Virus record (IMG/VR): IMGVR_UViG_3300029876_000011
Origin: a virus
DNA length: 50,705 bases
Reading direction: 5' to 3' (one strand)
Shown here: in pieces, positions 7,498-47,215 of the stretch
Position numbering within the stretch: position 1 is the first letter of the stretch
Layout: each line of letters starts with the position of its first letter
Translations under genes and position numbers: made by a program
Notes under the pieces: generated by a model
Databases searched by the model: none
What the model was told of the DNA's origin: nothing
The model's input: only the letters and a program-made list of their open reading frames with translations

Positions 7498-7610
7498 TTT
7501 ATTTTCCTCCTTATCAAAAATTAGATTGTGGGTAATTCATATAAGATAAGGTATTATATGAAAATGTAATATTCCACTGTCCCCACTTATTTTACTATTT
7601 GAATACTAAA

Positions 7611-8237
7611 TTATGCACTTGGTGTTGGTGCAAATGATGAAAGAGTATCAGGTGTTTGTACTGTTTTAAACCACTCAGACAAATCTAATTTAGTTCCATC
7701 ATCTTTAGTATCTTCTAATGCAACATAAACTTTTCTTCCACCATTTGTGAATTTATGAGTTGTTGCAATACCTGTATATACTAGAGACATATTGTTTGAA
7801 TCTGTTCCAGCATTTTTAGTTGTGTTAGTTTCATCTGGTATTTGGAAAGTTCCTTTTAAAGCCCATTTATAAGTCTTAACTCCATCTGTTGTTTCACTAA
7901 CATAACCAACTGCAAAGTAAGGATTAGTAACTCCATCTCCTCCACCTAGAATAGCACCAGTTGTTGTATCAATTTGCTGTCCTGTTAATTTTGCTAACAT
8001 TGAATTTGTTAAATGGTCTATTGTAAATGTTCTTGTTTCTGCTCCTACACCTTTTAAAACTAATGCTGGATTGTTGTCATAATATTTAGTTTCACTACCT
8101 TGCTCAGTTGTAACTCCAACTTCAGCAAGTCCTGCTATACTAAAAACTTCTCCAGTTTCATAACCAGTTGAATCATCTTTTGATACTAATGCTGCCACAA
8201 GATTTTCACAACCTCTATATTCTGCTATTTGCTTCAT
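7611..8237 (-). CDS. Major tail protein
   Basis: 208 aa, Thr/Gly-rich beta-rich protein just upstream of the chaperone pair. Confidence 0.6.
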   Translation of the reverse strand: MKQIAEYRGCENLVAALVSKDDSTGYETGEVFSIAGLAEVGVTTEQGSETKYYDNNPALVLKGVGAETRTFTIDHLTNSMLAKLTGQQIDTTTGAILGGGDGVTNPYFAVGYVSETTDGVKTYKWALKGTFQIPDETNTTKNAGTDSNNMSLVYTGIATTHKFTNGGRKVYVALEDTKDDGTKLDLSEWFKTVQTPDTLSSFAPTPSA

Positions 8238-8240
8238 ATT

Positions 8241-8603
8241 TTATTCCTCCTTCTTTTTTATAAAATATACATCAAACATTTTTGCTGTATGTGTTTTATT
8301 ATCACTGGCAACATCTGTTGGATCATCAGTAATAATAAAATCATTTTCTTCTAATTCTTTAATTGCTTTATCAGTCATTTCTAATAAAAATATTCTATCA
8401 GTACTATAAGCATTTATTTGATAACCAATATCATTTTTATTATGTTGATTATCATACATTTCTCCTCTAGCATTATCCCAACACCAATAACTAAAATAGT
8501 TTTCAGGTTCAGGATCTTCTTTTGATAGAGTACCTTGAAGAATAACATCAAATTCTTGACTTAATTTTAGGCTTTCCAATACCCTAACTAATTTATCTTC
8601 CAC
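8241..8603 (-). CDS. Tail terminator-like protein
   Basis: 120 aa, immediately upstream of the major tail protein gene; by position only. Confidence 0.3.
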   Translation of the reverse strand: MEDKLVRVLESLKLSQEFDVILQGTLSKEDPEPENYFSYWCWDNARGEMYDNQHNKNDIGYQINAYSTDRIFLLEMTDKAIKELEENDFIITDDPTDVASDNKTHTAKMFDVYFIKKKEE

Positions 8604-9033
8604 TATTCATCACCTTATCTAACTCTTTAGCAAATACTTCTTCTTGAATTTTTGCTATTTCTTCTTTAGTTTTAGTTCCATAAATAGTACTCTTTAATCC
8701 TTTTACTGGATTACTATAGTTTCCACCATACATTAGAAATATTGGTGTAATACCTTCATCTAAACTAAAACCAATATCAATAGTTCCATTAAATCCTTTC
8801 CACTCAATGTTTTTATCATCAATAATTTGCCTTTCAGATTGTCCTTTTGAGTATTTACCTTTTGCTGGCAAATTTGATTTAGTAAGTTTTTCATGGATTA
8901 ATGGTGTTATATAATCATGACTTGCTTCTAATGCTTTAGTTCCTACTGGAATTATATCCGCTCCTAAATCAGAAAATTGTTTAATCATTTCTTCAAGCCC
9001 ATCAAATTCTAAACTAAACTTTTTCTTTGACAT
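8593..9033 (-). CDS. Tail completion protein (HK97 gp10-like)
   Basis: 146 aa, overlapping neighbours; by position only. Confidence 0.3.
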   Translation of the reverse strand: MSKKKFSLEFDGLEEMIKQFSDLGADIIPVGTKALEASHDYITPLIHEKLTKSNLPAKGKYSKGQSERQIIDDKNIEWKGFNGTIDIGFSLDEGITPIFLMYGGNYSNPVKGLKSTIYGTKTKEEIAKIQEEVFAKELDKVMNSGR

Positions 9034-9389
9034 TATGCTTTACCTTTATTTCTTTTAATTTTAAATTTAAGATATTGGTGCATTTGGTCTATATCTTCTG
9101 GTTCGTTTAGAATTTCAAAAGTTGCATTATCTGATAATCTAACTAATAAGCAATCACTTTTTATATCAGGTCTAAACCAAGTTACTATATTTGCAGTATC
9201 CTCAATAATATATCTATCATTTTCTGTTCTTTCTGTACCTCCAAAGGTTTTAAAGTTACAATAGATAATTGGATCAATTGCATTTTTATAAATTGGTTTA
9301 GATACACCATTCTTCTTTTCGTATTTATCAACTATAAGAAGTTTCATTGGTGTATTTAACTGTTTTATTTCATTTGGCATATAAGACAT
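9033..9389 (-). CDS. Head closure / head-tail joining protein
   Basis: 118 aa; by position only. Confidence 0.3.
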   Translation of the reverse strand: MSYMPNEIKQLNTPMKLLIVDKYEKKNGVSKPIYKNAIDPIIYCNFKTFGGTERTENDRYIIEDTANIVTWFRPDIKSDCLLVRLSDNATFEILNEPEDIDQMHQYLKFKIKRNKGKA

Positions 9390-9395
9390 AATTTA

Positions 9396-9647
9396 TCACC
9401 TTTTTTCTCTTAACCTTATAATTTGCTTTTCAAAGTCTGGAGAATACTCATGAAGATTATCTTTATCCCATACACCTTTAGTAATAGCACCAATGGATGA
9501 TTTGCTATTAACTACTTCTTTAGATACACCCATTCCCATCATATCTTCTTTTACTTCTGATATAAGTTGTAATAGAGTATCATCTTGATAATCTCCTGTA
9601 ATTCTCAAAGACTTTTTCAATTTAATTAATAACTCTTGCTCATCCAT
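9396..9647 (-). CDS. Head-tail adaptor (gp6-like connector)
   Basis: 83 aa, first gene after the capsid/glycosyltransferase genes; size and position typical. Confidence 0.35.
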   Translation of the reverse strand: MDEQELLIKLKKSLRITGDYQDDTLLQLISEVKEDMMGMGVSKEVVNSKSSIGAITKGVWDKDNLHEYSPDFEKQIIRLREKR

Positions 9648-9794
9648 TGGTTAATCACTCCTTTGTAATAGAATATATTTTTGCATATCCTAACTTACAT
9701 ATTTTTATTGTTCTATCTCTATCTACCTCTATTATTTCTCCTAAATAAACATCTCTTTTTAGAACTATGTCAAAATTTTTGCTAATAGTAACTA

Positions 9795-24467: not shown

Positions 24468-25442
24468 CTAAATTATTTCAATTTGAATAGCATCAATTTC
24501 TCTACCATAAATACCAGCCATACCATTAACAGAATCGTTAATGTCAAACTTAGTTATCCAGCCTAACCATCTTCCTGCTGCTACAATATTTCCATATTCA
24601 TCTTTTCGTTCTTTTATATGAACTCTATATCTAGCAGTACCTTTTGTTGACTTAATAGCAATACCATCAATTGGCTTTTCTAAAATGCCAGCGAAATCAT
24701 CTCCATATTTATCTTTTTGTCTATCAGTTATCAATCCTAACCATTTACCATTGATAGTATGAACTTGATAGATTAGATTTCCTGCTGCTTCTACTGTTCC
24801 TACTGTATTACCTCTAAAGCCACTAATAGGTTTACCATAAACTCCAGCATATCCATCTGAATCAACATTGTTGTAATTAGTGATATCACTCCACCACTTA
24901 CCACCAGCATATACTTGATATTTTACATTAATCTTTTTGTTTTCACTATTTGAAGCATTTAATTTATTTTCAACCATTTTAATAAATCTATTCCAACCCA
25001 TATCTAATGTTCTATGTGGACAATATTTACCTGAATAATCTTGGTGTTTTGTTACTTTGTCAATTCCCCAATTGTATCTCTTTAAAATATCAACAATTAG
25101 ATCAACTGCATTTTGTTCTGCTTTAATAAATCTTTCTCCACCTGATTTAGAGTAGCAAATTTCAATTGCTATACCTTCTCTATTTCCTTTTCCATTCCCA
25201 CCGTCTCCAGCATGCCAGCCATTCCTATTTTCAGGAAGTCCTTGTACTACTTCTTTATCATCTACTGCATAATGGAAAGATGTTTCATCATTATTTCTAG
25301 TCATATATGCTATCTCATTTCTAGCAGTAGCATCATTTGCAGTGTTATGTACTACTATTCTAGTAGGTGTCATACTATAAGGACATTTAATATTGTACTT
25401 GCTTTCTGGAACTATCTTTTTAATTATATTCATTTCCTTCAC
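24468..25442 (-). CDS. Endolysin: N-acetylmuramoyl-L-alanine amidase (PGRP/amidase_2 fold) with C-terminal repeated cell-wall-binding units
   Basis: IVVHNTANDATARNEIAYM...SFHY...YCPH zinc-amidase pattern; C-terminal repeats GGKWW / NGKWLGLI / AGRWLGWI. The likely true start is the second Met, preceded by a GGAG site. Confidence 0.8.
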   Translation of the reverse strand: MKEMNIIKKIVPESKYNIKCPYSMTPTRIVVHNTANDATARNEIAYMTRNNDETSFHYAVDDKEVVQGLPENRNGWHAGDGGNGKGNREGIAIEICYSKSGGERFIKAEQNAVDLIVDILKRYNWGIDKVTKHQDYSGKYCPHRTLDMGWNRFIKMVENKLNASNSENKKINVKYQVYAGGKWWSDITNYNNVDSDGYAGVYGKPISGFRGNTVGTVEAAGNLIYQVHTINGKWLGLITDRQKDKYGDDFAGILEKPIDGIAIKSTKGTARYRVHIKERKDEYGNIVAAGRWLGWITKFDINDSVNGMAGIYGREIDAIQIEII

Positions 25443-25552
25443 TCTCCTTTACTATTTGAAGCATTTTGAATAAAAAAAGATAATACATAAAATCAAAAAA
25501 CTTTATATATTATCCTCCTTTCTAATACTATTATATTAAAATAAAATATTTT

Positions 25553-28999: not shown

Positions 29000-29765
29000 T
29001 ATTGTTTTCCTCCTTATATGGATAAATGTCGGTCCAATTTTTTAAGATAGATTGTTCTAATATTTTAATTTGAATTTGTTTACTATTTGACAACTTAAAT
29101 AGTTTATTAATTAGCATAGTTAATGCTCTATCAGTCATAGGCTTTTTTATTAACTTTCTCATTTTTATATAATCATAAATAGTATTTTTGACTTCATTAT
29201 TTTCAACCATAGAATTTAGAATTTCATCGTAAGATGTTTTCTTTCTTTCTTCTTTATTCTTTATATCTATCTCTATACTCTTATCTCTATCTCTATACTC
29301 TATCTCTTCGTTATTTTCAATAACATTACTATCGTTACTATCGGCGTTACTATTAGTAACGGATAATTTTAACTGTTTTTGTCTTTCTCTAAATCTTTTT
29401 TGTCTTTGAGCATTTGCATTTGCTGCTTCACTTCCTACCATTTCATTGAAGTTAGCAATTTTCAATATTTTATCTGTTTCTTCATATATAAGCCCTAATT
29501 TTTTAAACAATCCTAATGCAATTGTTACTGTATCAAAATCAAAATGTTTAGTATCTCTTACAATTTTTTCTACATTAAATGGAACTATCATTTCACCAAT
29601 TTTAGAACACATTTCTCCATTGTTATTGGCTGTATTTAAACATAACATTTGATACAAAACTATATATTCACAACCATTCTTTTGAGATAGTAAAAAATCT
29701 ATAGTTTCTTGATTGAAAAAGTCTGTCTTTAACTTGATCCAATAATATCTTTTATCTTCTTTCAT
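28947..29765 (-). CDS. Phage replisome organiser (DnaD-like N-terminal domain)
   Basis: N-terminus KRYYWIKLKTDFFNQETIDFL matches the replisome-organiser N-terminal family pattern; sits upstream of the DnaC-like loader. Confidence 0.55.
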   Translation of the reverse strand: MKEDKRYYWIKLKTDFFNQETIDFLLSQKNGCEYIVLYQMLCLNTANNNGEMCSKIGEMIVPFNVEKIVRDTKHFDFDTVTIALGLFKKLGLIYEETDKILKIANFNEMVGSEAANANAQRQKRFRERQKQLKLSVTNSNADSNDSNVIENNEEIEYRDRDKSIEIDIKNKEERKKTSYDEILNSMVENNEVKNTIYDYIKMRKLIKKPMTDRALTMLINKLFKLSNSKQIQIKILEQSILKNWTDIYPYKEENNNAIHQGNAKSDLSKYDR

Positions 29766-29797
29766 ATCCTCACCTTATCCTTTCTAGGTATGTAAAA

Positions 29798-29865
29798 AGA
29801 GTACCTATACACAACCCACAAATTATTTGTTAAGGATAGCCTGTGGGCTGTGTATAAATACTCTT
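29798..29865 (-). promoter_or_regulatory. 23-bp imperfect inverted repeat (agagtacctatacacaacccaca / tgtgggctgtgtataaatactct) with a 22-nt AT-rich loop, in the 5' leader of the replisome organiser gene
   Basis: 20 of 23 positions are complementary; lies between the consensus promoter (29887-29915) and the start codon (29765). Confidence 0.5.
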
Positions 29866-29886
29866 CATGCTACCCTTAACAATATC

Positions 29887-29915
29887 ATTTTACCATTTAT
29901 TTACAATTATGTCAA
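29887..29915 (-). promoter_or_regulatory. Consensus sigma-A-type promoter TTGACA-N17-TAAAAT
   Basis: Minus strand reads gtagTTGACAtaattgtaaataaatggTAAAATgat; exact 17-nt spacer. Confidence 0.6.
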
Positions 29916-30057
29916 CTACTTTTTTACTATTTGAAGCATTTTATTTAAACCTTTATAAAATCCTTCTATATCTCCTGAAAGTATTTGACCTTTCATTGTC
30001 TTATATGTATTCTTAGGTATCTTGTATTTAAGTTTCTTTAGTTCTTTGAGTGCTTTA

Positions 30058-31873: not shown

Positions 31874-31914
31874 TTTAACACCTCCTTTATTTACTATTTG
31901 AAGCATTGAAGCCC

Positions 31915-32109
31915 TTAAAGGACTTCAACTGCTCCAGTTTCTTTGCTGCATTTAATTTCTGTTTTCTTCCCATCAAGTTCAAACCTCCAAGAATAAGTAG
32001 TAGGTGTTTCCTTATCAACATACCAGCCTATAACTTCATCAAACTCTTTATATTTTGATTTGTTATAAACTTTCTTAATTCTACTTACTGCTTGTTTGTT
32101 TGTTAGCAT
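31915..32109 (-). CDS. Hypothetical protein
   Basis: 64 aa; driven by promoter/leader cassette copy A. Confidence 0.4.
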   Translation of the reverse strand: MLTNKQAVSRIKKVYNKSKYKEFDEVIGWYVDKETPTTYSWRFELDGKKTEIKCSKETGAVEVL

Positions 32110-32200
32110 TTTGTATTTCCCCTTTGATGTTTTAGTAGGTTATCTCCTAACCTCTATATATATAATAACATATATGATAATATATATCAATAGTTTTGTT
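32110..32200 (-). promoter_or_regulatory. Promoter/leader cassette family P-I, copy A (TTGATA-N17-TATTAT)
   Basis: -35 at 32185-32190, -10 at 32162-32167; shares the conserved leader ..tatatatagaggttaggagataacctactaaaacatcaaagggg. Confidence 0.5.
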
Positions 32201-32235
32201 TCATTTTTTATCTGTAATTTATTATTTGAAGCATA

Positions 32236-32583
32236 TTACTCTTGACTATCTACAAATCTAGTAAAGGTATTCTTATATCCTCCAATAGCATAGTCTATAT
32301 ATTCACTAGTCTTATTAATCCTTGCTTCTTGAACTTTTTCATTCGCTAATTCAGGATGTTCTTTTTGTACCTTTCTTCTTGCTCTTGTTATACTTTCAAA
32401 TGCTGGTAATTTATATTCTTTATGATTTAACATAACATCATAAAATGGTTGTCTAATTACCACATTTTCATTAATTAACTGATATACTCTATACAATAAG
32501 ACAAAATCATCTGATCTAGTATCTTCAAATCTAGTTAGCACATCTTTAACCATATCCTCCACTTTATATAAATCAGTTTTCAT
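32236..32583 (-). CDS. Hypothetical protein
   Basis: 115 aa. Confidence 0.4.
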   Translation of the reverse strand: MKTDLYKVEDMVKDVLTRFEDTRSDDFVLLYRVYQLINENVVIRQPFYDVMLNHKEYKLPAFESITRARRKVQKEHPELANEKVQEARINKTSEYIDYAIGGYKNTFTRFVDSQE

Positions 32584-32782
32584 TTTTCCCCTCCAATTCT
32601 TTCATTTTTAGTAATATATCTAGATATACTGTTTCTTGAGTTTCGTTAAAAGTATCTACCAAGAACATTACTAACATTTTCCAATTCGTTTCTAATTTAT
32701 TTAACTTTGCCAATTTCTCTGCTGTATATAAACTTAAATATTCACCTTTCATATAATCACCTCTTTTTACTATTTGAAGCAT
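32573..32782 (-). CDS. Hypothetical protein (probable true start at the internal Met; the annotated N-terminus MLQIVK is the conserved motif)
   Basis: The ATGCTTCAAATAGTAAAAAGAGGTGA motif plus ribosome-binding site lies before an internal ATG. Confidence 0.35.
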   Translation of the reverse strand: MLQIVKRGDYMKGEYLSLYTAEKLAKLNKLETNWKMLVMFLVDTFNETQETVYLDILLKMKELEGKNEN

Positions 32783-35223: not shown

Positions 35224-35710
35224 CTCCTTTCATTTTGCTTTTAACATTTATCCACACTTTTTTTCCTAAAATGTTATTGATTTCTCCAATTGTATAACCT
35301 TTTAAAAATAATTTTATACATTTAAGTTCTTGTTGGTTTAAGTGTGCCTTTTCTATTAATTCATTAAGATATATTTTTGTGTCTATCTCATGTTGTGGAT
35401 TATAAGATTTGTTATAAATGACTATCGGATTTTTAAAATCAAGTTTATCAATAATATCTTCTTCATAAATTTCATGCCTTACCTTTGATGAATTAAGATA
35501 ATTGTATTTCCAAAATTGTTTATCAGCATTGTATAGTTTTTCAAATGTATAATTCTCTTTATGTTTAACTTGATATCTGTTCCATAATACTAATAATTTG
35601 TGTATGTAATAATCATATAAATCATCATATTCAACATATTTTATTGTTTTGATATCTACCTTGCATAGGATTTTTACCTTGTCATAGTATTTTATTAATT
35701 CTTCCATCAT
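35186..35710 (-). CDS. Hypothetical protein with C-terminal sigma-region-4/LuxR-like helix-turn-helix
   Basis: LNQQELKCIKLFLKGYTIGEINNILGKK. Confidence 0.4.
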   Translation of the reverse strand: MMEELIKYYDKVKILCKVDIKTIKYVEYDDLYDYYIHKLLVLWNRYQVKHKENYTFEKLYNADKQFWKYNYLNSSKVRHEIYEEDIIDKLDFKNPIVIYNKSYNPQHEIDTKIYLNELIEKAHLNQQELKCIKLFLKGYTIGEINNILGKKVWINVKSKMKGVESYESIRKKIL

Positions 35711-36153
35711 ACAAACATTTTACCAATATGATACTTTTTAAAATCTTGATATTTCTTTAATAGTTCTTCTTCTTTTTTTATATCTTCATCAATTTTGTCA
35801 AATATGTTTGCTATATGCTTCTGTGTTTTAATATCATTATGTATTACTAATTCCATATGATTAAATACATCTGGTTGTATGTTTATCCCTGTTTGATATT
35901 TAGAAAGAAATACAGGCAGTTGATCACTTATAAGATAATATAAATATTTGCTATTAATTAATTTGTTGTTTTTAACAATTAGCACTATATATTGGCTTTC
36001 TACATTAGTATCTTGATTTAAGTAAAATATTTGTCCCTTACTAGCAGATACTTGAATAATGATATTTCCTTCACTATAAACTTTATTTTTCTTTGCTCTT
36101 TCAATATCAACTAAATCTAATAATTTCACTTCTTTATAATTTCTTAAATCCAT
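35707..36153 (-). CDS. hsdS: Type I restriction-modification specificity subunit, half-size (single target-recognition domain)
   Basis: 148 aa; HsdS-like TRD plus conserved C-terminal helix (HIANIFDKIDEDIKKEEELLKKYQDFKKY); start 4 nt after the hsdM stop. Confidence 0.65.
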   Translation of the reverse strand: MDLRNYKEVKLLDLVDIERAKKNKVYSEGNIIIQVSASKGQIFYLNQDTNVESQYIVLIVKNNKLINSKYLYYLISDQLPVFLSKYQTGINIQPDVFNHMELVIHNDIKTQKHIANIFDKIDEDIKKEEELLKKYQDFKKYHIGKMFV

Positions 36154-36157: not shown

Positions 36158-37450
36158 TCACCCTAACCACTCCATCATAGGTTTTATTGCTTTTGAATAA
36201 TATTCTTTTTCTTCTGGTGTAGTTCCCTCTAACTGTTCAAGCATTCCTTTTAATTGTTTTTCACATTCTTTAGTTTCTTTTTCAATTTTAATAATATCCT
36301 GTACTACTTCCTTTAAATCTGGTAATGGTTCGGTTTCAAACGTATCAACATATCTTGGAATATTTAAGTTATAATCATTTTTAACTACTTCTTCAAAACT
36401 TGCTAAATGTGAATATTTTTCTATTTCTTTTCTATTTTTGTATGTTTCTATTATTTTGTTTATTTGTTCATCATTCATATCATTTTGTTTTGCTTGCTTT
36501 ATGCAGTTTTTAGAACTATCTATAAACAAAATATTTTTATCTTGTTTATTTTTGTTCAATATTAATATGAATGTAGGAATACCTGTATTCAAAAACATTT
36601 TTTCAGGAAGGCCAATAATGCTATCAATTAAATTATTTTCTATTAATTGTTTTCTTATTTCTCCCTCTGCTGATCCTCTGAACAATACACCATGAGGCAA
36701 TATCATAAATGCTTTACCGTTATCACTCAATCTATATAGAATATCTAATACAAATGCAAAATCGGCTTTGCTTTTTGGTGCTAACTCATATCCTTCAAAC
36801 CTTTTATCACATTTTGGCTGCCATTCTATTGAATATGGAGGATTAGAGATGATGGTGTTATATTTAATATCTTGTATATTTTCACTTTTTCCGATTACAC
36901 TGAAATCATTACCTTTTTTCAGTGTGAAAGTATTTATTATTTCATTTTTCAATACATCTTTTTGAATTATTAAGGCATCTGTATTTCTAATTGATAAGTT
37001 AAACAACAATATAGGTATTGACCTAGAAGATAATTCTTCACATTGAAAAGTTGCATTCTTATTTTCATTGTAAGTAAACAATGTTAAAGATCCTGTTCCA
37101 CTGCATACATCTAATACACTATCTTGTTTATCTTGTAACCTTGCTATTATTTTACATATACTATCAGGAGTATAATCTTGCTTTAATCCTTTTCTATCAC
37201 TATGTTCTTCTTGAAAATAATCTCTAAAAAAATCGCTTGATAAATCAATGTCGTACTTCATAAAATTATTAAATAGTTTGTTTTTTTCTTCTTCATTTAA
37301 TAATAAAGTCATTAACTTATCAGGTAATTCAAAACTCTCTTTTATTCCTATAAGTTCATTTATTACTTTGCTTGTTATTTTTTTCTTTTTTTCATCATTA
37401 AATAATGACATTTGTCCATTCATATTTCCTCCTTTTACTATTTGAAGCAT
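36158..37450 (-). CDS. hsdM: Type I-like N6-adenine DNA methyltransferase (HsdM); likely true start at ATGAATGGACAAATG (~37422), since the annotated MLQIVKGG N-terminus is the conserved motif plus ribosome-binding site
   Basis: Motif I VLDVCSGTGSL, motif IV NPPYS; C-terminal HsdM-like region. Confidence 0.8.
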   Translation of the reverse strand: MLQIVKGGNMNGQMSLFNDEKKKKITSKVINELIGIKESFELPDKLMTLLLNEEEKNKLFNNFMKYDIDLSSDFFRDYFQEEHSDRKGLKQDYTPDSICKIIARLQDKQDSVLDVCSGTGSLTLFTYNENKNATFQCEELSSRSIPILLFNLSIRNTDALIIQKDVLKNEIINTFTLKKGNDFSVIGKSENIQDIKYNTIISNPPYSIEWQPKCDKRFEGYELAPKSKADFAFVLDILYRLSDNGKAFMILPHGVLFRGSAEGEIRKQLIENNLIDSIIGLPEKMFLNTGIPTFILILNKNKQDKNILFIDSSKNCIKQAKQNDMNDEQINKIIETYKNRKEIEKYSHLASFEEVVKNDYNLNIPRYVDTFETEPLPDLKEVVQDIIKIEKETKECEKQLKGMLEQLEGTTPEEKEYYSKAIKPMMEWLG

Positions 37451-38319
37451 TAAAACTTCACATTTTCTAATTTTTTTCGTTTTTGCTCTCCTGATGTTTT
37501 AGTATATATCCTTGTTGTCTTTAAATCATTATGTCCTAACAAATCTGCTAAATCTAGCACATTCTCTGGATAACTTTCTAAAAATACCTGTGCAAATAAA
37601 TGTCTAAAGTTATGAGGATGTACCTTTTCTTTATTAATTCTAGCAATTCCTGCAATCTTCTTCATTTGTCTCCAGATGGTTGATACTGCTGGCATTTTAC
37701 CTTTACACTTTGGATCATTTGATAGAAATATGTAACCGCTATCTATTCCTTTTGATTTATAGTATTTTTTTAATTCTCTTGATAGGTCTTGCCTTATTAC
37801 TATTTCTCTATCTTTTCCTTTGTTATATACCTTTATATTTTTTCTAGGTGTTTTTTCTAGGTTTTCAACTGTGAAGTACTTTAATTCTCCAATTCTACAA
37901 CCTGTCATACCTAAAACTTTAATTATGTAATATAATTGCTCGTTGCCTGTTTTATTAGCAATTCTTAATAATCTCTTAAAGTCTGCTATGGTTAATGATT
38001 CTTCATTGCTACTCTGCTCTTGCATTTTATATTTTTTTATTGTTAAGTCATTTAATCCTAACCATCTTAAATACTTATTTAATGATACTATCCATATATT
38101 CATACTCTTTGGACTTTCTGTTATGGTTCTTATATAGTCTTTATAATCCATAGTAGTATCTTTTGTTATTGACTTCTCATCATCAGGAAGCCAATTAATG
38201 AATTTCATTACATTGTTTTTATATTGCTTTAATGTATTTACTTCTTTTTCTTCATATCTTAATTCAGTTATCCATTCATCAACTTTTGATAGTAGTTCTT
38301 CTTTGTTCATAGTTATCAC
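37450..38319 (-). CDS. Tyrosine recombinase (XerC/D-sized; no arm-binding domain)
   Basis: C-terminal catalytic signature HNFRHLFAQ ... LGHNDLKTTRIYTKTS (R..H-x-x-R..Y); stop overlaps the hsdM-motif ATG. Confidence 0.75.
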   Translation of the reverse strand: MITMNKEELLSKVDEWITELRYEEKEVNTLKQYKNNVMKFINWLPDDEKSITKDTTMDYKDYIRTITESPKSMNIWIVSLNKYLRWLGLNDLTIKKYKMQEQSSNEESLTIADFKRLLRIANKTGNEQLYYIIKVLGMTGCRIGELKYFTVENLEKTPRKNIKVYNKGKDREIVIRQDLSRELKKYYKSKGIDSGYIFLSNDPKCKGKMPAVSTIWRQMKKIAGIARINKEKVHPHNFRHLFAQVFLESYPENVLDLADLLGHNDLKTTRIYTKTSGEQKRKKLENVKF

Positions 38320-39560: not shown

Positions 39561-39788
39561 CTATTCACTCTCCTTGTTAATAATTTTCATAACTTCATCT
39601 ATTACCTTTTCAGTTAATTTATCTGCTTGTTCATCAATTAGTTTATTTAGATCATTTAATTCTTCTTCTTTAATAATGCCTTTTCTAATTAATATAATAA
39701 CTAATGATATAAATTGTGCATTTAGTTTAATGGATTCTTGTCTTAAATCATTATTTAATACCTCTCGTTTAATTTCTTCTCTTGTCAT
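39561..39788 (-). CDS. Hypothetical protein
   Basis: 75 aa helical. Confidence 0.4.
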   Translation of the reverse strand: MTREEIKREVLNNDLRQESIKLNAQFISLVIILIRKGIIKEEELNDLNKLIDEQADKLTEKVIDEVMKIINKESE

Positions 39789-39989
39789 CTATTCACCTCT
39801 TTAAATAAATTTATTATTTGAAAATTTCTGTCTATATTTAAACAAAAATTTTGGATGGTACTTATTCAGTAAATGCAACAATAATTTTTCAATAATACTT
39901 TTTAGGTATCTGAAAAACCATATTGTATGATTTACCACTTTGTAATATTGCATTACATTCACCTTTCGTATTTTTTAATCACATTATAT

Positions 39990-40247: not shown

Positions 40248-40469
40248 TTATTCCTTTTTCCACAACAGCCACATATCTGAATAAGGACCTATTAGTTCAT
40301 CTTCAAACACCTCATAGAACCTTTCCATAAGTCCAAATGATGGATTAGATTTACCACTCTCAATATCTGAATAATGCTGCCTAGTTATGTCTAATTGTTC
40401 AGCAAAGTATTTAATACTTCTTTTGCCTTTTTCTCTTGTTCTCCTAAACTTTATTAGAGTAAACCTCAT
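40248..40469 (-). CDS. cro: Cro-like XRE-family HTH protein
   Basis: 73 aa with YFAEQLDITRQHYSDIESGKSNPS helix-turn-helix; divergent from the cI-like gene. Confidence 0.6.
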   Translation of the reverse strand: MRFTLIKFRRTREKGKRSIKYFAEQLDITRQHYSDIESGKSNPSFGLMERFYEVFEDELIGPYSDMWLLWKKE

Positions 40470-40558
40470 ATTTATTTATCACCTCCTAACAATGTTTCTT
40501 ATTGAAAGGTAATTTTACTTTTTGAAGCATACAATTCACCTCACTACCATCTATTACC

Positions 40559-40587
40559 ATTTTACTATATTTAAATAATTTTGTCAA
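40559..40587 (-). promoter_or_regulatory. Consensus promoter TTGACA-N17-TAAAAT for the cro-side early transcript
   Basis: Minus strand reads TTGACAaaattatttaaatatagTAAAATgg; 90 nt upstream of the cro ATG. Two copies of the 17-nt motif lie in the switch region. Confidence 0.55.
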
Positions 40588-40671
40588 TAATAAATTGTCA
40601 TTTTCAAACTTAAAGTTTTACTTTTTGAATACTTTAGTGTATATTTATATTTGATAAATTAGAAAGGAAGT

Positions 40672-41046
40672 GTGGAAATGACTAAAATACAAAAGTCATT
40701 AGATACTAAGGAAATTGGAGAAAAGGTTAGGCAATTAAGGAAAGCAAGATCAATGAGGCAAGATGAACTTGGAGAAGTTTTAGGAGGTTTAAGTAGAGGA
40801 CAAGTAAGTAATTTAGAAACAGGGAGAAGAAATTTAAATATTCATCAAATAAAAATATTAGCAGACTTTTTTGGAGTATCTTTAGAAACATTAGGATTAA
40901 AAACAGAAGAAGTAGAAGTTAATGATTTATTGGCTCGTGCAAAATTAATTTTTGAAAATGATACTGTACCTTTTGAAGAAAAACAAGAATTGAGTGAAGA
41001 AATTATGAAAATGTATATCATAGCAAAGGAGCAAATAAAAAAATAG
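40672..41046 (+). CDS. cI: cI-like XRE-family repressor (HTH only, no S24 peptidase domain)
   Basis: IGEKVRQLRKARSMRQDELGEVLGGLSRGQVSNLETGRR helix-turn-helix; plus strand, upstream of int. Confidence 0.65.
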   Translation: MEMTKIQKSLDTKEIGEKVRQLRKARSMRQDELGEVLGGLSRGQVSNLETGRRNLNIHQIKILADFFGVSLETLGLKTEEVEVNDLLARAKLIFENDTVPFEEKQELSEEIMKMYIIAKEQIKK

Positions 41047-41496
41047 AAGTATCTCTATTTGATACTTCAAGGAGGTGATATTTTATGCTTTAGAGCCATA
41101 TATTAGTTTTATCTCTTTTTAATTTTTTTATTTCTTCTTCTGTATAGAAGCAGTTTTCATTATCTTTAAATAAACGATTGCAACCATCATATAATCTTTT
41201 TTGTAGGCTTTTTTCTTATAACAGTATGTTTCATAATATCACCTCCTAATCAACTATAACAAAATTGATTAAGAATATATTATTAAGATACTTCTTTAAC
41301 TTTAATTTTAATTTTTAAATTATTTTGGTTGGCATATAATTCATACAATAACTCATAGAATTTAGTAATATTCACATTATCAATCCTTTCTTATCACATT
41401 GTGAAAGATAAATGCTTCAAATAGTATATTTAATAACTACATTATGAAACAAAATATAATATTATTACAACTAGAATTTAAAGGGGATATTGGAAA

Positions 41497-42855
41497 ATGA
41501 AAGCAAAAAGAATAGCAGGATATGTTAGGGTTTCACACGATGAACAAAAGAAATATGGCTATTCAGTTCAAGCACAAATAGATAGGATTATAAGGTATGC
41601 AGAAGAAAATAAATGTCAATTAGTAGAAATATATGTTGATGAGGGTTTTACTGCTACAAAAATGAAAAGACCTGATTTATTAAGAATGTTAAACGATTTA
41701 GATAAATTTGATGTACTTGTATTTACTCGTTTGGATCGTTTCTCTAGGAATGTATTACAAGCAAACAAAATGGTTGAGATTATGGAAGAATACAATGTAG
41801 CCATTAAATCAATTGAAGAAGAAGATATTGATACAACTACTGCTGATGGTAAGTTCAACTTCAATTTAAGGGTATCACTCGCCCAAAGGGAAGCAGAAAA
41901 GACAAGCGAACGGATTAAATCAATATTTGAATTTAAGATTAAACAAGGGCAACCAGTAAGTGGTAACCAACCTTATGGTTATAAAATCGTAACCAAAGAC
42001 AATAAGAAAACAATCGTTAAAGATCCTGAACTTATACCTATTGTAAATGATATATTTGAATATTTTGCTAAACATCATACTATAAGAGGCACTATGACAT
42101 ATATTAATGGTAAATACGACATAAGCAAAAATTACAATTGTATTTATAGAATGCTAACAAGTACTGAATACTATGGACTATATGAAGGTAACCCTAATTA
42201 CTACCCTCCATACATCACAAAAGAAGAATTTGAAAAGAACGTACAAAGAAGAAAAGCAAATGTTAAAGGAAGAAAAGGAACTAATGTTTATCTATTCACC
42301 TCCCTAATGAAATGCCCTTTTTGTGGGTTTAAAATGGTTGGTAAGTTCACCAAAAGAAAAAACAAAAATGGGACAATTAGAGAATACTGGGGTTACATTT
42401 GTAGCAACAACCAAAGAAATAAAGCATGTGCTAGTGGTAAGGTTATTAATGAAAATGTAATTTTAGACTTCCTTTTAAAAAATGTTGAAAAACTCGCTCA
42501 AAAACATATTGCAGAAGTTATGGAAGTTAAACCAGCAGATAAAACCGATTTACCTCAAAATCGGATTAATGAAATTTTAGAGGAAATTGACAACTTAAAT
42601 TATATGTTCCAAAAGAAAAGAATTGACATTAAAAAGTATGATAAAGAATATGAGGCACTTGAAAAAGAACTAGCAAACTTACAAAAAGAAACACCAAAGG
42701 AAACTGATATTACTATATTAGAAGAATTTTTAAAGAGTGATTGGAAAGATGTTTATAACTCTTTAGACAAAGAAAATCAAAGGGCTTTATGGAGAAATTT
42801 GATAAAGGAAATTAAGTTTAATAAAGATTTTAAAATAGATGTAGATTTCTTATAA
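41497..42855 (+). CDS. int: Large serine recombinase (integrase)
   Basis: N-terminal resolvase catalytic domain with RIAGYVRVSHDEQ (Ser nucleophile); recombinase domain; zinc ribbon CPFCGF...C..C; C-terminal coiled-coil. Confidence 0.85.
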   Translation: MKAKRIAGYVRVSHDEQKKYGYSVQAQIDRIIRYAEENKCQLVEIYVDEGFTATKMKRPDLLRMLNDLDKFDVLVFTRLDRFSRNVLQANKMVEIMEEYNVAIKSIEEEDIDTTTADGKFNFNLRVSLAQREAEKTSERIKSIFEFKIKQGQPVSGNQPYGYKIVTKDNKKTIVKDPELIPIVNDIFEYFAKHHTIRGTMTYINGKYDISKNYNCIYRMLTSTEYYGLYEGNPNYYPPYITKEEFEKNVQRRKANVKGRKGTNVYLFTSLMKCPFCGFKMVGKFTKRKNKNGTIREYWGYICSNNQRNKACASGKVINENVILDFLLKNVEKLAQKHIAEVMEVKPADKTDLPQNRINEILEEIDNLNYMFQKKRIDIKKYDKEYEALEKELANLQKETPKETDITILEEFLKSDWKDVYNSLDKENQRALWRNLIKEIKFNKDFKIDVDFL

Positions 42856-42908: not shown

Positions 42909-42911
42909 AAA

Positions 42912-43353: not shown

Positions 43354-43415
43354 TTTCAATTACTCCCTTAAAATTTATTATTTGAAGCATAAGAGGGAAA
43401 TTAATCCCTCTCTTT

Positions 43416-43673
43416 TTATTTTACTATTACTAGTTTTGCTCTAAATCTTGCAAATGTACTTTCTATAATTTCATATTCAAATTCATCATCTGCTACTACA
43501 CGCATATTTGATATTAATACTGCATTTATATCCCTTTCTGACAATCTTGTTATTGCCTGTGACATATTGTTTACTGTTTCTGCTGTATCAACTCCATGTA
43601 ACATTGCATAATTTAAACACTTTGCAATTTGATCTTCAACATCTTTACCTTTTGCTAAAATAAGAAGTTTCAT
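43416..43673 (-). CDS. Hypothetical protein
   Basis: 85 aa; driven by cassette copy B. Confidence 0.4.
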   Translation of the reverse strand: MKLLILAKGKDVEDQIAKCLNYAMLHGVDTAETVNNMSQAITRLSERDINAVLISNMRVVADDEFEYEIIESTFARFRAKLVIVK

Positions 43674-43689
43674 TTTTTGTTTTCCCCTT

Positions 43690-43762
43690 TGATGTTTTAG
43701 TAGGTTATTTCTTAACCTCTATATATATAATAACATATATAATAATACATATCAATAGATTT
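43690..43762 (-). promoter_or_regulatory. Promoter/leader cassette family P-I, copy B (TTGATA-N17-TATTAT, leader hairpin aggttaagaaataacct, RBS AAAGGGG)
   Basis: -35 at 43750-43755, -10 at 43727-43732; the leader is near-identical to copies at 32110-32200 and 44045-44114. Confidence 0.5.
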
Positions 43763-43824
43763 GCTTCTAATTTATTATTTAGTTTATTATTTGAAGCATA
43801 AGAGGGAGATTAATCCCTCTCGTT

Positions 43825-44114: not shown

Positions 44115-44141
44115 ACAAAATGCTTCTATTTGAATACTTTT

Positions 44142-44357
44142 TTAAATTATAAATATTTTATCATTATCCATTGTTTCAATTGATCCGATCATTTCTAGTT
44201 CTTCTAACCATCGTGTGAAGAAATATTCTTCCTCACTATTTTCAATTCCTAGTAATCTTTTTAATTGGATAATGTCAGTAGTATAACCACCTTGTAACAT
44301 AGCAACTAATTCTAATAATTGAGTTTTAATTTTATTTTTAAGTTTTTCATTTGTCAT
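44142..44357 (-). CDS. Hypothetical protein
   Basis: 71 aa. Confidence 0.4.
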   Translation of the reverse strand: MTNEKLKNKIKTQLLELVAMLQGGYTTDIIQLKRLLGIENSEEEYFFTRWLEELEMIGSIETMDNDKIFII

Positions 44358-44373
44358 TTTTTATTCTTCCTTT

Positions 44374-44601: not shown

Positions 44602-44632
44602 TTTAATCTCTCCTTTTCTTAATTACACATAT

Positions 44633-44661: not shown

Positions 44662-44689
44662 GTAATAATTTACATTTTTCTGACATTTT

Positions 44690-44720
44690 AACAAAATAAA
44701 AAAGGACTATATTAGTCCTC
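44690..44720 (-). terminator. Hairpin aggacta-tat-tagtcct followed by TTTTTTATTTT on the minus strand, after the hicB-like gene
   Basis: Perfect 7-bp stem with a T-run on the minus strand. Confidence 0.45.
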
Positions 44721-45149
44721 TTCCTCTTTGATATCCAATGTTTCCATTAATGCTTTTTGTAAAACTGCTGATACATTAACTCCACTTTCAATGGCTTTTT
44801 GATTTAAATATTTAGGTAAAGTTACTGCTTTTGTAATTGATTTATATTTATCCTTTTCTCTAAACCACTTCATATTTACATCAATATAAATTAGTTTTTG
44901 GTTATCCTTTAGTTTGATTTCTTTAGGATCGCTAGGCTCTTTAATTTCTCTTTCATCAGTTTCTAACTCTAAATAATGTAATCCTAATGCTTCTTTTCCT
45001 TTTTCAATAGTATCTTGTATGGACTTACCTCCAGTATAACAACCTTCTATATCAGGAAAATAAGCATTATATAACTCTTTTTCTGAATGTTTTTCAATAA
45101 CCATAGGATAACAAATAAAGTTTTTAGTCATGTTTTCCCTCCTTAACAA
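44712..45149 (-). CDS. hicB: HicB-family antitoxin-like protein (HicB fold plus C-terminal ribbon-helix-helix-like region); probable true start at MTKNFICYPMV
   Basis: NFICYPMVIEKHSEKELYNAYFPDIEGCYTGGKSIQDTIEKGKEAL matches the HicB/UPF0150 pattern; the upstream ATG lies inside an AAGGAGGG ribosome-binding site. Confidence 0.55.
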   Translation of the reverse strand: MLRRENMTKNFICYPMVIEKHSEKELYNAYFPDIEGCYTGGKSIQDTIEKGKEALGLHYLELETDEREIKEPSDPKEIKLKDNQKLIYIDVNMKWFREKDKYKSITKAVTLPKYLNQKAIESGVNVSAVLQKALMETLDIKEEED

Positions 45150-45154
45150 TATAT

Positions 45155-45182
45155 ATTATAACACATATTATATTATATTCAA
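45155..45182 (-). promoter_or_regulatory. Promoter TTGAAT-N16-TATAAT upstream of the hicB-like gene
   Basis: Minus strand reads TTGAATataatataatatgtgtTATAATatatattgttaaggaggg. Confidence 0.4.
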
Positions 45183-45220
45183 ATTTTAAAATAAATTAAC
45201 AATTTGAAGCAATTTAAATT

Positions 45221-45419
45221 TCAAAAGAACCTTTTTTCAAATATTTCATGAGTACATATACTATATACTAAATCTTCTATATCATCACCAGATATAAACC
45301 AACCATCATTTAAATAGCAAGTATTCTCTTTTATTTCAACTATACAATGATTATCTAGAAAATCCCCCACTTATATTTAATAATACTTCTTTATCTTGAC
45401 TTCTAATCCATAATTCCAT
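45221..45419 (-). pseudogene. Frameshifted small ORF at a G5 homopolymer (plus-strand C5 at 45364-45368)
   Basis: MELWIRSQDKEVLLNISGGFSR then stop; the other frame continues DFLDNHCIVEIKENTCYLNDGWFISGDDIEDLVYSICTHEIFEKRFF. The ATG overlaps the stop of 45419..45763 (TAATG). Confidence 0.35.
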
Positions 45420-45763: not shown

Positions 45764-45766
45764 TAT

Positions 45767-46015
45767 TTACCTCCAACATTCTCGTATAATCTGTTTTATA
45801 TTTTCATCAACATTTTCATAAATTCTTTCAAGTATATCCCTTTCTTGTGTATATATTTTTTTATTTTTAACATCATTTAAGGCTTCGATATAACCTTTTA
45901 AACGATAAATTTCATTATTCCTTTTAACATCGTTCATAGTAGTTATATAATTAAAATCATTAAGTTTTTTTAATCGCTCTTTTTTTCTATGTATAATAGT
46001 ATGTATATCTTCCAT
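45767..46015 (-). CDS. Hypothetical protein
   Basis: 82 aa. Confidence 0.4.
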   Translation of the reverse strand: MEDIHTIIHRKKERLKKLNDFNYITTMNDVKRNNEIYRLKGYIEALNDVKNKKIYTQERDILERIYENVDENIKQIIRECWR

Positions 46016-46033
46016 TATTTATCATCCTACTTT

Positions 46034-46237
46034 CTAATAAGGTCTTTTATAAGTGAACCGACCATAATAATTAGGAATATTGTTAATATTGTAATTAAAC
46101 TTAAAAAAAGTCCAGTCTATAAAACTCCAATCAATTTTATTTGTTTCCCCAGTGCATATATTTATATATTCATAACTTCCTATATTAGTTCGTTCTACTA
46201 AACAACCACTCAAATTTACATTTATCTCATTTTTCAT
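46034..46237 (-). CDS. Hypothetical protein
   Basis: 67 aa. Confidence 0.35.
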   Translation of the reverse strand: MKNEINVNLSGCLVERTNIGSYEYINICTGETNKIDWSFIDWTFFKFNYNINNIPNYYGRFTYKRPY

Positions 46238-46247
46238 TATTTACCTC

Positions 46248-46448
46248 CTAAATATGCAAAATACTATTAATAATATCTTTTAACCATTTATTTTCTTTTT
46301 CATATTTTCTTAATTCATTTTCTAAATTATTAATTCTATTTTCATAACATTTTCCTTGTTCTTCCAATTGCATATTTAAATATCTATTTTCAGCATCTTT
46401 TTGTTTATACATTTCTTCATAATTACAAGATACTTTATTTTCTTCCAT
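46248..46448 (-). CDS. Hypothetical coiled-coil protein
   Basis: 66 aa. Confidence 0.4.
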   Translation of the reverse strand: MEENKVSCNYEEMYKQKDAENRYLNMQLEEQGKCYENRINNLENELRKYEKENKWLKDIINSILHI

Positions 46449-46675
46449 TATTTATCATCTCCTATTATTTCTCTATATTTTTGTAAAATTTCTTTATATA
46501 CTTTCATCTCTTTGTTGGAATTGAACAGTAAATCAGAAACTGCTTCGCAACTATGTATTTCATCTTCTAAATAATTTATAAACTCCTTTTGTTGAGTTTT
46601 ATTTGTTTGAATTATAAGTGCATTAGATACAGCGACATTTTGCCAATAATGACTTTTTTCTCTATCTCTAGTCAT
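46448..46675 (-). CDS. Hypothetical protein
   Basis: 75 aa. Confidence 0.4.
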   Translation of the reverse strand: MTRDREKSHYWQNVAVSNALIIQTNKTQQKEFINYLEDEIHSCEAVSDLLFNSNKEMKVYKEILQKYREIIGDDK

Positions 46676-46829
46676 TTATTTCACTCTCTCTTTTTCTGTT
46701 TTTATATGTTCTATTGTCTTTGCACCATTTACAAGAACCATGATTGCGACAAGATTTATCTACTGCTTTTGCTTTTCTATATGGCTTTCTTTTTTCTTTG
46801 CCATATTTAATTGCTTTGTCTAAAGACAT
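46668..46829 (-). CDS. Small basic Cys-containing ORF (53 aa), not in the ORF track
   Basis: MSLDKAIKYGKEKRKPYRKAKAVDKSCRNHGSCKWCKDNRTYKNRKRESEIND, verified; start overlaps the upstream stop (TAATG), stop overlaps the next ATG (ATGACTAG). Confidence 0.3.
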   Translation of the reverse strand: MSLDKAIKYGKEKRKPYRKAKAVDKSCRNHGSCKWCKDNRTYKNRKRESEIND

Positions 46830-47215
46830 TATTCCTCCTTTACTATTTGAAGCACTTTATTTGTAATATCTAATATATTCTTTTGAATTGATGTTTTAAA
46901 TTCATAATCAATGCTGGATTGAACTTCTTTTTCTTCCCATTTTTTCATTAATGGAAATGAAAATTCTTTAAATACATCAAAATTATTTATATATCTTTTT
47001 ATTTCTTCTAATGCTTCTTCTAAATCATTTGATCTATGAAAAGCCTCATGTTCTCTTTTTAGTGCTGTTTTTCTTAGTTCTAGTTCTAATTCTAGTTTCT
47101 TATTTTTTTCTTTCAGATCATCAATATCACTCAATAAATCTTGAAGAATTTCAATAGGAATTAAGTAGTCTCCACCTTTTTGATAAAAACAATCAAAATC
47201 CTCTATTTGCATCAT
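46829..47215 (-). CDS. Hypothetical coiled-coil protein; its last 8 codons are the conserved 17-nt motif plus ribosome-binding site (..VLQIVKEE)
   Basis: 128 aa. Confidence 0.4.
   Translation of the reverse strand: MMQIEDFDCFYQKGGDYLIPIEILQDLLSDIDDLKEKNKKLELELELRKTALKREHEAFHRSNDLEEALEEIKRYINNFDVFKEFSFPLMKKWEEKEVQSSIDYEFKTSIQKNILDITNKVLQIVKEE

Follow-up and report, generated by a model that had tools for sequence, protein, structure and literature searches.

The 50,705-nt viral sequence IMGVR_UViG_3300029876_000011 of IMG/VR, which was analysed over its full length and is called the window below, contains 21 good copies and one degenerate copy of a 17-nt word, ATGCTTCAAATAGTAAA, of which 0.4-1.2 copies would be expected by chance. 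The copies are dispersed over the sequence, run with the local genes and include two at conserved positions in the immunity switch, where a cI-like repressor of the Xre family is encoded divergently from a cro-like gene. We propose that these 17-bp sites are read by the cI-like protein and that the dispersed copies block transcription in the lysogen, a reading to which we assign a probability of about 0.7. Its two parts differ in strength: that the sites are bound by a repressor of the cI family is highly probable on the sequence evidence, and that the dispersed copies act as oriented blocks to transcription is held with slightly better than even confidence. The argument is carried by what could be observed directly, namely the statistics of the motif, its conserved geometry, its linkage to cI and the covariation between protein and DNA.

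Distribution and shape of the 17-nt word

The G+C content across the window is 24-33%, and nearly all of its genes lie on the minus strand. An earlier note on this DNA, made by reading the sequence, had described about 20 dispersed, strand-specific copies of a 17-nt motif, and the motif proved to be real: allowing up to three mismatches to the consensus ATGCTTCAAATAGTAAA, 17 hits were obtained where 1.09 are expected, and 17 or more were reached in 0 of 100 shuffles. A weight-matrix scan against shuffled sequence, which the note had suggested, found 20-21 gene-sense copies and a single one on the opposite strand, compared with 0.36 sense and 0.20 antisense copies in first-order Markov shuffles at a threshold of 14 bits. 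The coordinates first given were all recovered, with the corrections that the copy put at 39813 lies at 39810-39826 and that the one at 44124 is the degenerate copy at 44122-44138; the copies at 3860, 12799, 18134, 24942 and 29079 had been missed. The full set is as follows.

3860-3876, minus strand: exact copy within the gene for a 1049-aa tail protein, 120 nt before its stop codon
7591-7607, minus strand: AGTATTCAAATAGTAAA, 3 nt past the stop codon of the open reading frame (ORF) 7611-8237; next start codon 93 nt on
10715-10731, minus strand: AGTATTCAAATAGTAAA, 3 nt past the stop codon of ORF 10735-12099; next ATG 14 nt on
12799-12815, minus strand: ATGCTTCAAATAGTGAA, inside the 3' end of ORF 12736-14043
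16034-16050, minus strand: AGTATTCAAATAATAAA, 14 nt 5' of ORF 15708-16019, which adjoins the large terminase gene
18134-18150, minus strand: AGTTTTCAAATAGTATA, 6 nt past a stop codon; next start codon 20 nt on
24942-24958, minus strand: ATGCTTCAAATAGTGAA, inside the amidase gene, in sense orientation
25448-25464, minus strand: exact copy in the gap between the sigma-factor and amidase genes, 14 nt to the ATG
29079-29095, minus strand: weaker copy AGTTGTCAAATAGTAAA, within the replisome-organiser gene
29923-29939, minus strand: exact copy with its end 7 nt 5' of the -35 of TTGACA-17-TAAAAT, the promoter ahead of the replisome-organiser gene
31890-31906, minus strand: exact copy immediately 3' of a hairpin, 16 nt to the ATG
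32218-32234, minus strand: ATGCTTCAAATAATAAA, 1 nt past the stop codon of ORF 32236-32583 and 27 nt 5' of a TTGATA-17-TATTAT promoter
32766-32782, minus strand: exact copy, 5 nt past a stop codon; next ATG 13 nt on
37434-37450, minus strand: exact copy filling the gap between the tyrosine recombinase and hsdM genes, 10 nt to the ATG
39810-39826, minus strand: weak copy AATTTTCAAATAATAAA, 21 nt 5' of the start of ORF 39561-39788
40514-40530, minus strand: ATGCTTCAAAAAGTAAA, 28 nt 3' of the -10 of the early lytic promoter P_R and 44 nt 5' of the cro-like start codon
40617-40633, minus strand: variant copy AGTATTCAAAAAGTAAA, 29 nt 5' of the -35 of P_R
41412-41428, plus strand: ATGCTTCAAATAGTATA, the only plus-strand copy, between cI and the serine integrase gene, in the sense of int
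43374-43390, minus strand: ATGCTTCAAATAATAAA, abutting a hairpin, 14 nt 5' of a start codon
43783-43799, minus strand: ATGCTTCAAATAATAAA, abutting a hairpin, 27 nt 5' of a TTGATA-17-TATTAT promoter-leader cassette
44122-44138, minus strand: degenerate copy AGTATTCAAATAGAAGC, directly past the stop codon of ORF 44142-44357
45196-45212, minus strand: weaker copy TTGCTTCAAATTGTTAA, 13 nt 5' of the TTGAAT-17-TATAAT promoter of a HicB-like gene
46839-46855, minus strand: GTGCTTCAAATAGTAAA, in the last 10 codons of ORF 46829-47215, 9 nt to the next ATG

Fifteen of the 21 copies lie outside called genes. Most had been placed 5-20 nt upstream of a Shine-Dalgarno sequence and ATG, which is borne out for the 10 of 21 that end 9-21 nt 5' of a start codon and not for the remainder, which are 44-157 nt away or intragenic; in long spacers the motif adjoins either the upstream stop codon or the downstream start. 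The form AGTATTC had been taken for a late-region variant, a label that does not hold, since the cI promoter and early regions of relatives contain this form too. A copy like that at 3860 stands in a closely similar coding context in the tail-region DNA of relatives. About 35 nt are duplicated after two structural genes (7591-7625 and 10715-10749, minus strand) in the form ACACCAAGTGCATAATT(T/G)AGTATTCAAATAGTAAA, so that both structural proteins end in ...TPSA and are followed by a motif copy.

On inspection, no dyad symmetry was found in the 17-mer. The window and all related loci were pooled and redundant contexts removed, giving 107-123 independent contexts, in which all sequence information falls into one contiguous 17-bp block, and no partner element was found at a -35-like or -10-like distance. 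The comparison with related phages, also suggested at the outset, thus confirmed the motif and delimited it. Co-orientation with local transcription holds for all copies in the window, since the sole plus-strand copy (41412) precedes the oppositely oriented, plus-strand int, as the earlier note had said. Among the non-redundant contexts, where the purine-rich strand was used as a proxy for the coding strand, the motif-sense strand was purine-rich in 92 of 107, and the exceptions are mostly isolated unrelated hits or switch regions in which genes diverge or converge.

Viral contigs scanned for the exact word yielded about 12 related contigs of approximately 27% GC with several copies each, located in the same kinds of position as in the window and ahead of different genes. 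In an exact-motif scan of species genomes, the matches listed were mostly chance singletons and included one related contig, from a metagenome-assembled genome named 'Clostridia bacterium'.

The cI/cro switch and its repressor

The features of the switch region to which the argument refers are the following.

40678-41046, plus strand: cI-like repressor of the Xre family, 122 aa (Pfam HTH_3), with a GTG at 40672 as a further possible start of the ORF
40248-40469, minus strand: cro-like helix-turn-helix (HTH) protein, encoded by the first gene of the lytic transcript (Pfam HTH_3)
40559-40587, minus strand: P_R-like early lytic promoter TTGACA-17-TAAAAT
40617-40645, plus strand: putative cI promoter, with the -35 TTTACT at 40617-40622, a 17-nt spacer and the -10 TATATT at 40640-40645
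41497-42855, plus strand: large serine integrase (int)

The cI and cro genes are divergent and have back-to-back promoters. The two motif copies that had been noticed in this switch, at 40617 and 40514, were confirmed, and their positions are conserved in relatives. The reverse complement of the variant copy AGTATTCAAAAAGTAAA supplies the TTTACT -35 of the putative cI promoter, and one layout is common to every relative that has cI: the variant copy as the cI -35, then 28-29 nt, then P_R, then a copy downstream. This arrangement recurs although the surrounding DNA of the lineages cannot be aligned. Palindromic operators were not found in the 200-bp cI/cro spacer, where inverted repeats are weak and the sole repeat is a direct one of 14 nt that belongs to the two motif copies. 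The motif read in reverse complement (TTTACT...) was also considered as a general antisense promoter and rejected, since a -10 at the right spacing is present at the cI promoter alone.

The recognition helix of cI is LSRGQVSNLETG. The protein matches only HTH_3, HTH_31 and HTH_19 in Pfam; a peptidase family (S24) is absent from these matches. Its AlphaFold2 model, with a mean pLDDT (predicted local distance difference test score) of 81.5, contains one canonical Xre HTH (residues 10-65) and a C-terminal two-helix hairpin, and no second DNA-binding domain was seen in it. A Foldseek comparison of the model with the PDB returned only Xre-type HTH domains (C.AhdI, the DNA-binding domain of BldD, and P22 c2), the match being limited to the HTH. 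Judging from the model, cI probably oligomerises.

Note also that the palindrome GAAC-N4-GTTC, or a one-mismatch variant such as GGAACGTATGTTCTT, occurs in the relatives L031/L176, L092, L177/L178 and L184 just 3' of the early lytic promoter and resembles the Gram-positive LexA (Cheo) box. The window contains 0 matches to this box, so that the SOS input may differ between lineages; the repressor of the window has no self-cleavage domain.

Linkage and covariation of the site with cI

The conjecture of the earlier note that the cI-like repressor reads the motif is supported by the way in which the motif accompanies cI, by its conserved positions in the switch, by covariation at one motif position and by a variant word found with distant homologues. 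Homologues of cI that are 56-100% identical, with a near-invariant HTH, are encoded by all motif-rich phages whose immunity region is covered. In L177, L178 and L184, which have 36-40% GC and little else in common with the window, exactly three copies are present in 11-20 kb, all of them at most 600 bp from cI: one is at the cI promoter, and the other two precede the cro-like gene and a small convergent gene past cI. Judged by these loci, the motif travels with the cI gene into otherwise unrelated phages.

The small gene that is convergent with cI and directly 3' of it (10392-10628, minus strand, in L177) is also found in L092, L182/L183 and L184. A motif copy and the conserved stretch CTTTCATAA...TGAATACATACATAT always lie ahead of it, and an anti-repressor or a toxin is a possible product.

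Residue 2 of the cI recognition helix (LSR-G-QVSNLETG) is taken by us to align with the base-contacting Gln29 of the 434 repressor. Where this residue is Gly, in nine lineage groups, C stands at motif position 4 in 102 of 164 sites; where it is Ser or Pro, in six groups that represent at least three clades by pairwise identity, C4 is found in 0 of 35 sites and T4 in 27 of 35 (Fisher p = 2.5e-13, kinship being ignored). A further line of evidence comes from relatives of the integrase that are 46-63% identical. The cI-like proteins that flank them are 32-39% identical to the cI of the window, and three of these distant proteins (about 33% identity) have the helix RPAISNIEAG. One such locus, L226, carries six copies of a distinct variant word, ATGTTTCAAAAnGAAAA, where 0.25 would be expected. 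The lytic strand carries all six; one is 57 nt 5' of the cI start, another is between cI and int, and others adjoin Shine-Dalgarno sequences. Distant cI homologues have their own variant word, ATGTTTCAAAAnGAAAA, in the same layout.

The sites might instead be read mainly by another immunity product, either the Cro-like protein or cI and Cro together, and serve regulation in the lytic phase and not lysogenic silencing. A Cro-like gene always adjoins the sites, its product has a helix of the same R/T-x-x-x-S-x-I/L-E-x-G pattern as the cI helix, and in the lambda and 434 switches Cro and cI share operators. However, the cro-like proteins of motif-bearing relatives are only 38-63% identical while the motif is unchanged, their helices do not follow the split at position 4 (TRQHY, for instance, is found with both C4 and T4 site sets), and the first gene after P_R is a different one in some lineages. 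We consider this explanation unlikely.

Promoters, leaders and hairpins around the sites

Strong sigma-70-like promoters, scored in the 123 contexts, are enriched at two positions relative to the site and overlap it almost never. In 17 contexts the site lies 4-33 nt 5' of the promoter -35, and in seven it lies 21-40 nt 3' of the promoter -10, the class to which the P_R arrangement of the window belongs. Most other copies are within operons, between a stop codon and the ribosome-binding site of the next gene. One promoter stands out.

29915-29887, minus strand: replication promoter TTGACA-17-TAAAAT, the strongest promoter just downstream of a site

The copy at 29923 had been described as 45 nt upstream of this TTGACA and actually ends 7 nt upstream of it. 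The leader at 29790-29870 (minus strand), which precedes the replisome-organiser ORF 28947-29765, forms a 27-bp hairpin followed by five U residues, with a folding free energy of -46.3 kcal/mol (z = -8.8) and no match in Rfam. Its role could be that of a terminator or attenuator, of an origin-type palindrome or of the end of a small RNA of about 100 nt, and with this hairpin the promoter at 29915 need not express the replication genes by itself.

A promoter-plus-leader cassette of approximately 95 nt occurs twice with about 90% identity (32105-32200 and 43669-43765, both minus strand) and comprises TTGATA-17-TATTAT, the small hairpin GAGGTTAGGAGATAACCTAC and a Shine-Dalgarno sequence. Unrelated small genes of 64 and 85 aa follow the two cassettes, and each cassette is located 27 nt 3' of a motif copy. 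Near-identical hairpins, AGAGGGA...TCCCTCT, abut motif copies at 43392-43411 and 43801-43820. On the plus strand, these hairpins and their T-run look like terminators for transcription from int, and in the minus-strand reading they stand ahead of it. A strong hairpin abuts 16-19% of the motif copies across the family, compared with 1-3% of control positions, and the first four or five motif bases are sometimes within the stem. A conditional terminator made of hairpin plus roadblock was considered and rejected, both because of this limited share of copies and because a stalled polymerase is estimated to stop before the hairpin.

These surroundings bear on the alternative, raised in the earlier note, that the motif acts in RNA as a site for a sequence-specific endoribonuclease or for a translational regulator or enhancer next to ribosome-binding sites, in a position like that of T4 RegB targets. 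For about one third of the non-redundant copies the distance from the motif end to a start codon is 9-20 nt, most often 13-16 nt, all copies are sense-oriented, and the excess of stable hairpins is what would be seen at processed mRNA ends. The spacing to the start codon is nevertheless variable, and the motif may stand at either end of a long spacer. One conserved copy lies 5' of P_R, over the -35 of the cI promoter, where a sense transcript is not expected, and 17 non-redundant copies are 5' of the promoter of the gene that they precede. The motif lacks a Shine-Dalgarno core, unlike the start-associated repeats of Cluster K phages (PMC3203893), and covariation with a DNA-binding helix would not be expected of an RNA site. 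An action in RNA is thus not supported and seems to us very unlikely.

It has also to be asked whether the motif is itself a promoter, or a single-element promoter of the -10 type giving short-leader mRNAs, for the sigma factor that the phage encodes.

25553-26131, minus strand: sigma-70-family factor with regions 2 and 4 (best NCBIfam match SigK/SigE, below threshold), just 5' of the amidase and small-terminase genes

Besides the existence of this gene, the part CAAATAGTA of the motif loosely resembles what we take to be the SigK -10 consensus, CATAnnnTA, and some copies follow terminator-like hairpins and precede Shine-Dalgarno sequences. Yet homologues of the sigma factor were found in the three closest relatives only and in none of the other loci of motif-rich phages examined, and no -35 partner element was found. 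The Shine-Dalgarno sequence often begins 0-2 nt past the motif, so that transcripts starting at a normal distance from a -10 TAGTAA would have it cut off. That copies precede early (cro) and late genes, int and accessory genes without distinction makes no sense in temporal terms, and the three copies flanking cI in L177/L184 and the covariation with the cI helix would be left unexplained. This explanation we rate marginally below the RNA site.

Homology breaks at the sites

In 114 of 273 pairs of related contexts (42%) homology breaks exactly at the motif, compared with 19 of 353 control pairs (5%); the controls are positions 400 nt away and mostly intragenic, and part of the enrichment therefore merely reflects gene boundaries. 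In different phages the same upstream flank is followed by different genes, for example in L172, L173, L175 and L018. The sites mark boundaries of mosaic modules.

Could the motif then be primarily a recombination linker or boundary, or the target of the phage's tyrosine recombinase, for the exchange of cassettes?

37450-38319, minus strand: tyrosine recombinase

The breakpoint counts, the shared upstream flanks with different downstream genes and the 35-nt segment with a motif copy that is duplicated after two structural genes are in keeping with such a role. Against it, the recombinase was not found in the examined DNA of distant motif-bearing phages, the site has neither the dyad symmetry nor the spacer typical of tyrosine recombinase targets, and the control positions are mostly intragenic. 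The geometry of the switch and the covariation with cI would have no explanation, and short conserved sites can come to be used for exchange simply because they are conserved. As the primary function we regard this as the least probable of the explanations considered; as a secondary effect it has real support in the sequence comparisons. An integron-like cassette system with the tyrosine recombinase was rejected, since the recombinase is not conserved in distant motif phages.

Proposed mode of action and points against it

In the reading that we prefer, the 122-aa, Xre-type cI would recognise the asymmetric 17-bp word ATGCTTCAAATAGTAAA. The variant copy over the -35 of the cI promoter would allow autoregulation, and a second copy would occupy approximately positions +20 to +37 of the transcript from P_R, before cro. 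At the roughly 20 further copies, in early, late, lysis and accessory regions, bound repressor would most likely stop polymerase arriving from upstream. Blocked at many points in this way, polymerase would leave cro and all downstream lytic transcription shut off. The plus-strand copy at 41412 would stop read-through from cI into int, and sites ahead of sigma-70-type promoters would insulate them, such promoters being still able to fire. Physical binding, the dependence of the elongation block on orientation and the activity of promoters in lysogens are what we infer from the patterns described above.

Several points speak against this proposal. No motif copy overlaps the P_R core, so that P_R would have to be repressed through looping or through the block downstream. 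The strong promoters that have a site on their 5' side, the replication promoter at 29915 among them, would escape repression by a pure roadblock. A single-HTH and, from its model, probably oligomeric protein would normally be expected to read a symmetric site, and the 17-bp site is asymmetric. The strand bias could partly be co-inherited with co-oriented gene cassettes, and the covariation statistic is not corrected for phylogeny. Finally, the co-occurrence data all come from one phage group, in which another protein is also widely conserved.

32236-32583, minus strand: 115-aa protein, in nearly all phages of the group with 47-63% identity

This protein has the conserved motif TRSDDF...VMLNHKEY.LP.F.S(I/V)TRARRK and no match in Pfam, PHROG, NCBIfam or the PDB. 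It was considered as an alternative reader of the motif and rejected, as it belongs to no matched family and is absent near cI in L177/L178, where the motif persists.

The phage, its relatives and other features of the window

The window reads as the complete, circularly permuted genome of a temperate siphophage. Beyond the switch, the minus-strand gene set includes replication genes, DNA methylases, the tyrosine recombinase, the SigK/SigE-like sigma factor, the small terminase subunit, and tail and lysis genes. An identical repressor protein (P0001) is encoded on 91 metagenomic contigs, many of them 50-52 kb long and derived from the human gut; on contigs that share it, a holin gene is followed by the 536-aa tail gene with which the window starts. 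A megablast search of cultured phage records with 20 kb of the window gave no match, and among cultured phages cI matched only Butyrivibrio phage proteins, at 30% identity. Scans of the window for Rfam families and tRNAs found none. Bo-Finn repeats were tried as dispersed operators and rejected, since they are coding repeats plus one local tandem cluster.

Some further genes of the window are the following.

36158-37423, minus strand: type I methylase subunit hsdM, 3' of the tyrosine recombinase gene
35707-36153, minus strand: hsdS, half-size specificity subunit, 3' of hsdM
44712-45149, minus strand: HicB-like antitoxin gene with its own TTGAAT-17-TATAAT promoter, located in the accessory region that separates the lysis genes from int

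A restriction subunit was not seen with hsdM and hsdS. Close relatives retain the tyrosine recombinase and have the methylase genes exchanged for others. The small ORF 45221-45370, 5' of the HicB-like gene, could be its partner. Upstream of ORF 15708-16019, next to the large terminase gene, is a 500-nt non-coding stretch (16020-16527) with an unusually GC-rich patch at about 16440-16510, CACCCCCCCACTCTTC...GGGGGCC. The stretch also contains a hairpin-forming repeat of 33 nt twice in identical form (16164-16196 and 16328-16360); a packaging (cos/pac) function or a structured RNA is possible.

Significance and comparison with known systems

Genome-wide stoperator networks are documented essentially in actinobacteriophages only, P1 and SPbeta being looser parallels. 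In the literature that uses the term 'stoperator', phages of other hosts were found as speculative comparisons only, and no Firmicutes phage was found. The system described here is probably, by analogy, stoperator-like in function, with an unrelated repressor protein and in a different bacterial phylum. If this is true, dispersed oriented repressor sites would be a convergent solution to prophage silencing in abundant, uncultivated phages of gut Clostridia. There would also be a compact recognition code, in which Gly as opposed to Ser or Pro in the helix corresponds to C as opposed to T at position 4, and immunity groups would become predictable from metagenomic sequence alone. The position of sites at homology breaks links regulation to mosaic genome evolution, and a small repressor with an asymmetric site that blocks one direction could serve synthetic biology in low-GC Gram-positive bacteria. 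A more sweeping hypothesis would combine all of this: a stoperator-style network that evolved independently in human-gut Clostridia phages, with a minimal single-HTH repressor, some 10-20 co-oriented sites per phage, immunity specificity set by Gly versus Ser/Pro, and sites that double as recombination linkers. In this full form we put it forward only tentatively, as possible but somewhat short of an even chance.

The divergent cI and cro genes with back-to-back promoters, and the Xre-type HTH that matches P22 c2 and controller proteins such as C.AhdI, are reminiscent of lambdoid, 434 and P22 switches. In those classical switches, however, operators are palindromic and clustered at the switch and the repressors have an S24 autocleavage domain, whereas here the sites are asymmetric and dispersed and the repressor has no peptidase domain. 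The start-associated sequence (SAS) of Cluster K mycobacteriophages is an asymmetric repeat in one orientation just 5' of many starts of unrelated genes; the Shine-Dalgarno core is part of it, and its distance from the start codon is 3-7 bp (PMC3203893). Differently from SAS, the present motif has no GGAG core, stands 9 to more than 100 nt from the start and is also found in the repressor switch.

The Bacillus subtilis prophage SPbeta has a 15-bp element, SPBRE, repeated at some 10 scattered intergenic locations, and in silico prediction of the element came well before its reader, the master repressor MrpR, was known (PMC10516654). It offers a parallel as a Firmicutes prophage with a dispersed repeated element, but MrpR has a tyrosine-recombinase fold and SPBRE lies in promoter regions. 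The density is also far lower there, with about 10 elements in 134 kb of SPbeta and about 21 sites in 51 kb here.

The earlier note had likened the motif to the L5 stoperators and to the operators of P1 C1, a resemblance that stands as a functional analogy only. P1 C1 is a 283-aa protein, and most operators of P1 overlap promoters of distinct operons under C1 control; the sites here rarely overlap promoters (123 contexts) and are often inside operons. C1 appears to belong to another family, whereas the repressor here is of the HTH_3 type and its Pfam matches are all Xre-type HTH families. The 17-bp asymmetric consensus of C1, ATTGCTCTAATAAATTT, with some 22 operators dispersed over the P1 genome (PMC8546580), is similar in site length and copy number.

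The repressor gp71 of mycobacteriophage L5 represents a type of 183-aa monomer that has an HTH and a second, 'Stoperator' DNA-binding domain and reads 13 bp (PMC9283540). With its 122 aa, one Xre-type HTH, a helical hairpin and a 17-bp site, the repressor of the window is not of the gp71 type, since its model contains no second DNA-binding domain, and the two are not homologues. L5 has an operator at its early lytic promoter, while here none is on the P_R core and one lies over the cI promoter; the hosts, too, are low-GC gut Clostridia and not Actinobacteria. In Cluster A phages such as L5, more than 20 asymmetric sites are found genome-wide, mostly in short intergenic gaps and with an orientation that tracks transcription, and the site sequence differs between repressor variants (PMC9283540; PMC6550527). 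The present system is like it in these respects: more than 20 dispersed asymmetric sites, of which 15 of 21 are intergenic, are oriented with transcription, and the sequence of the site shifts with the repressor variant, as seen in C4 versus T4 and in ATGTTTCAAAAnGAAAA.

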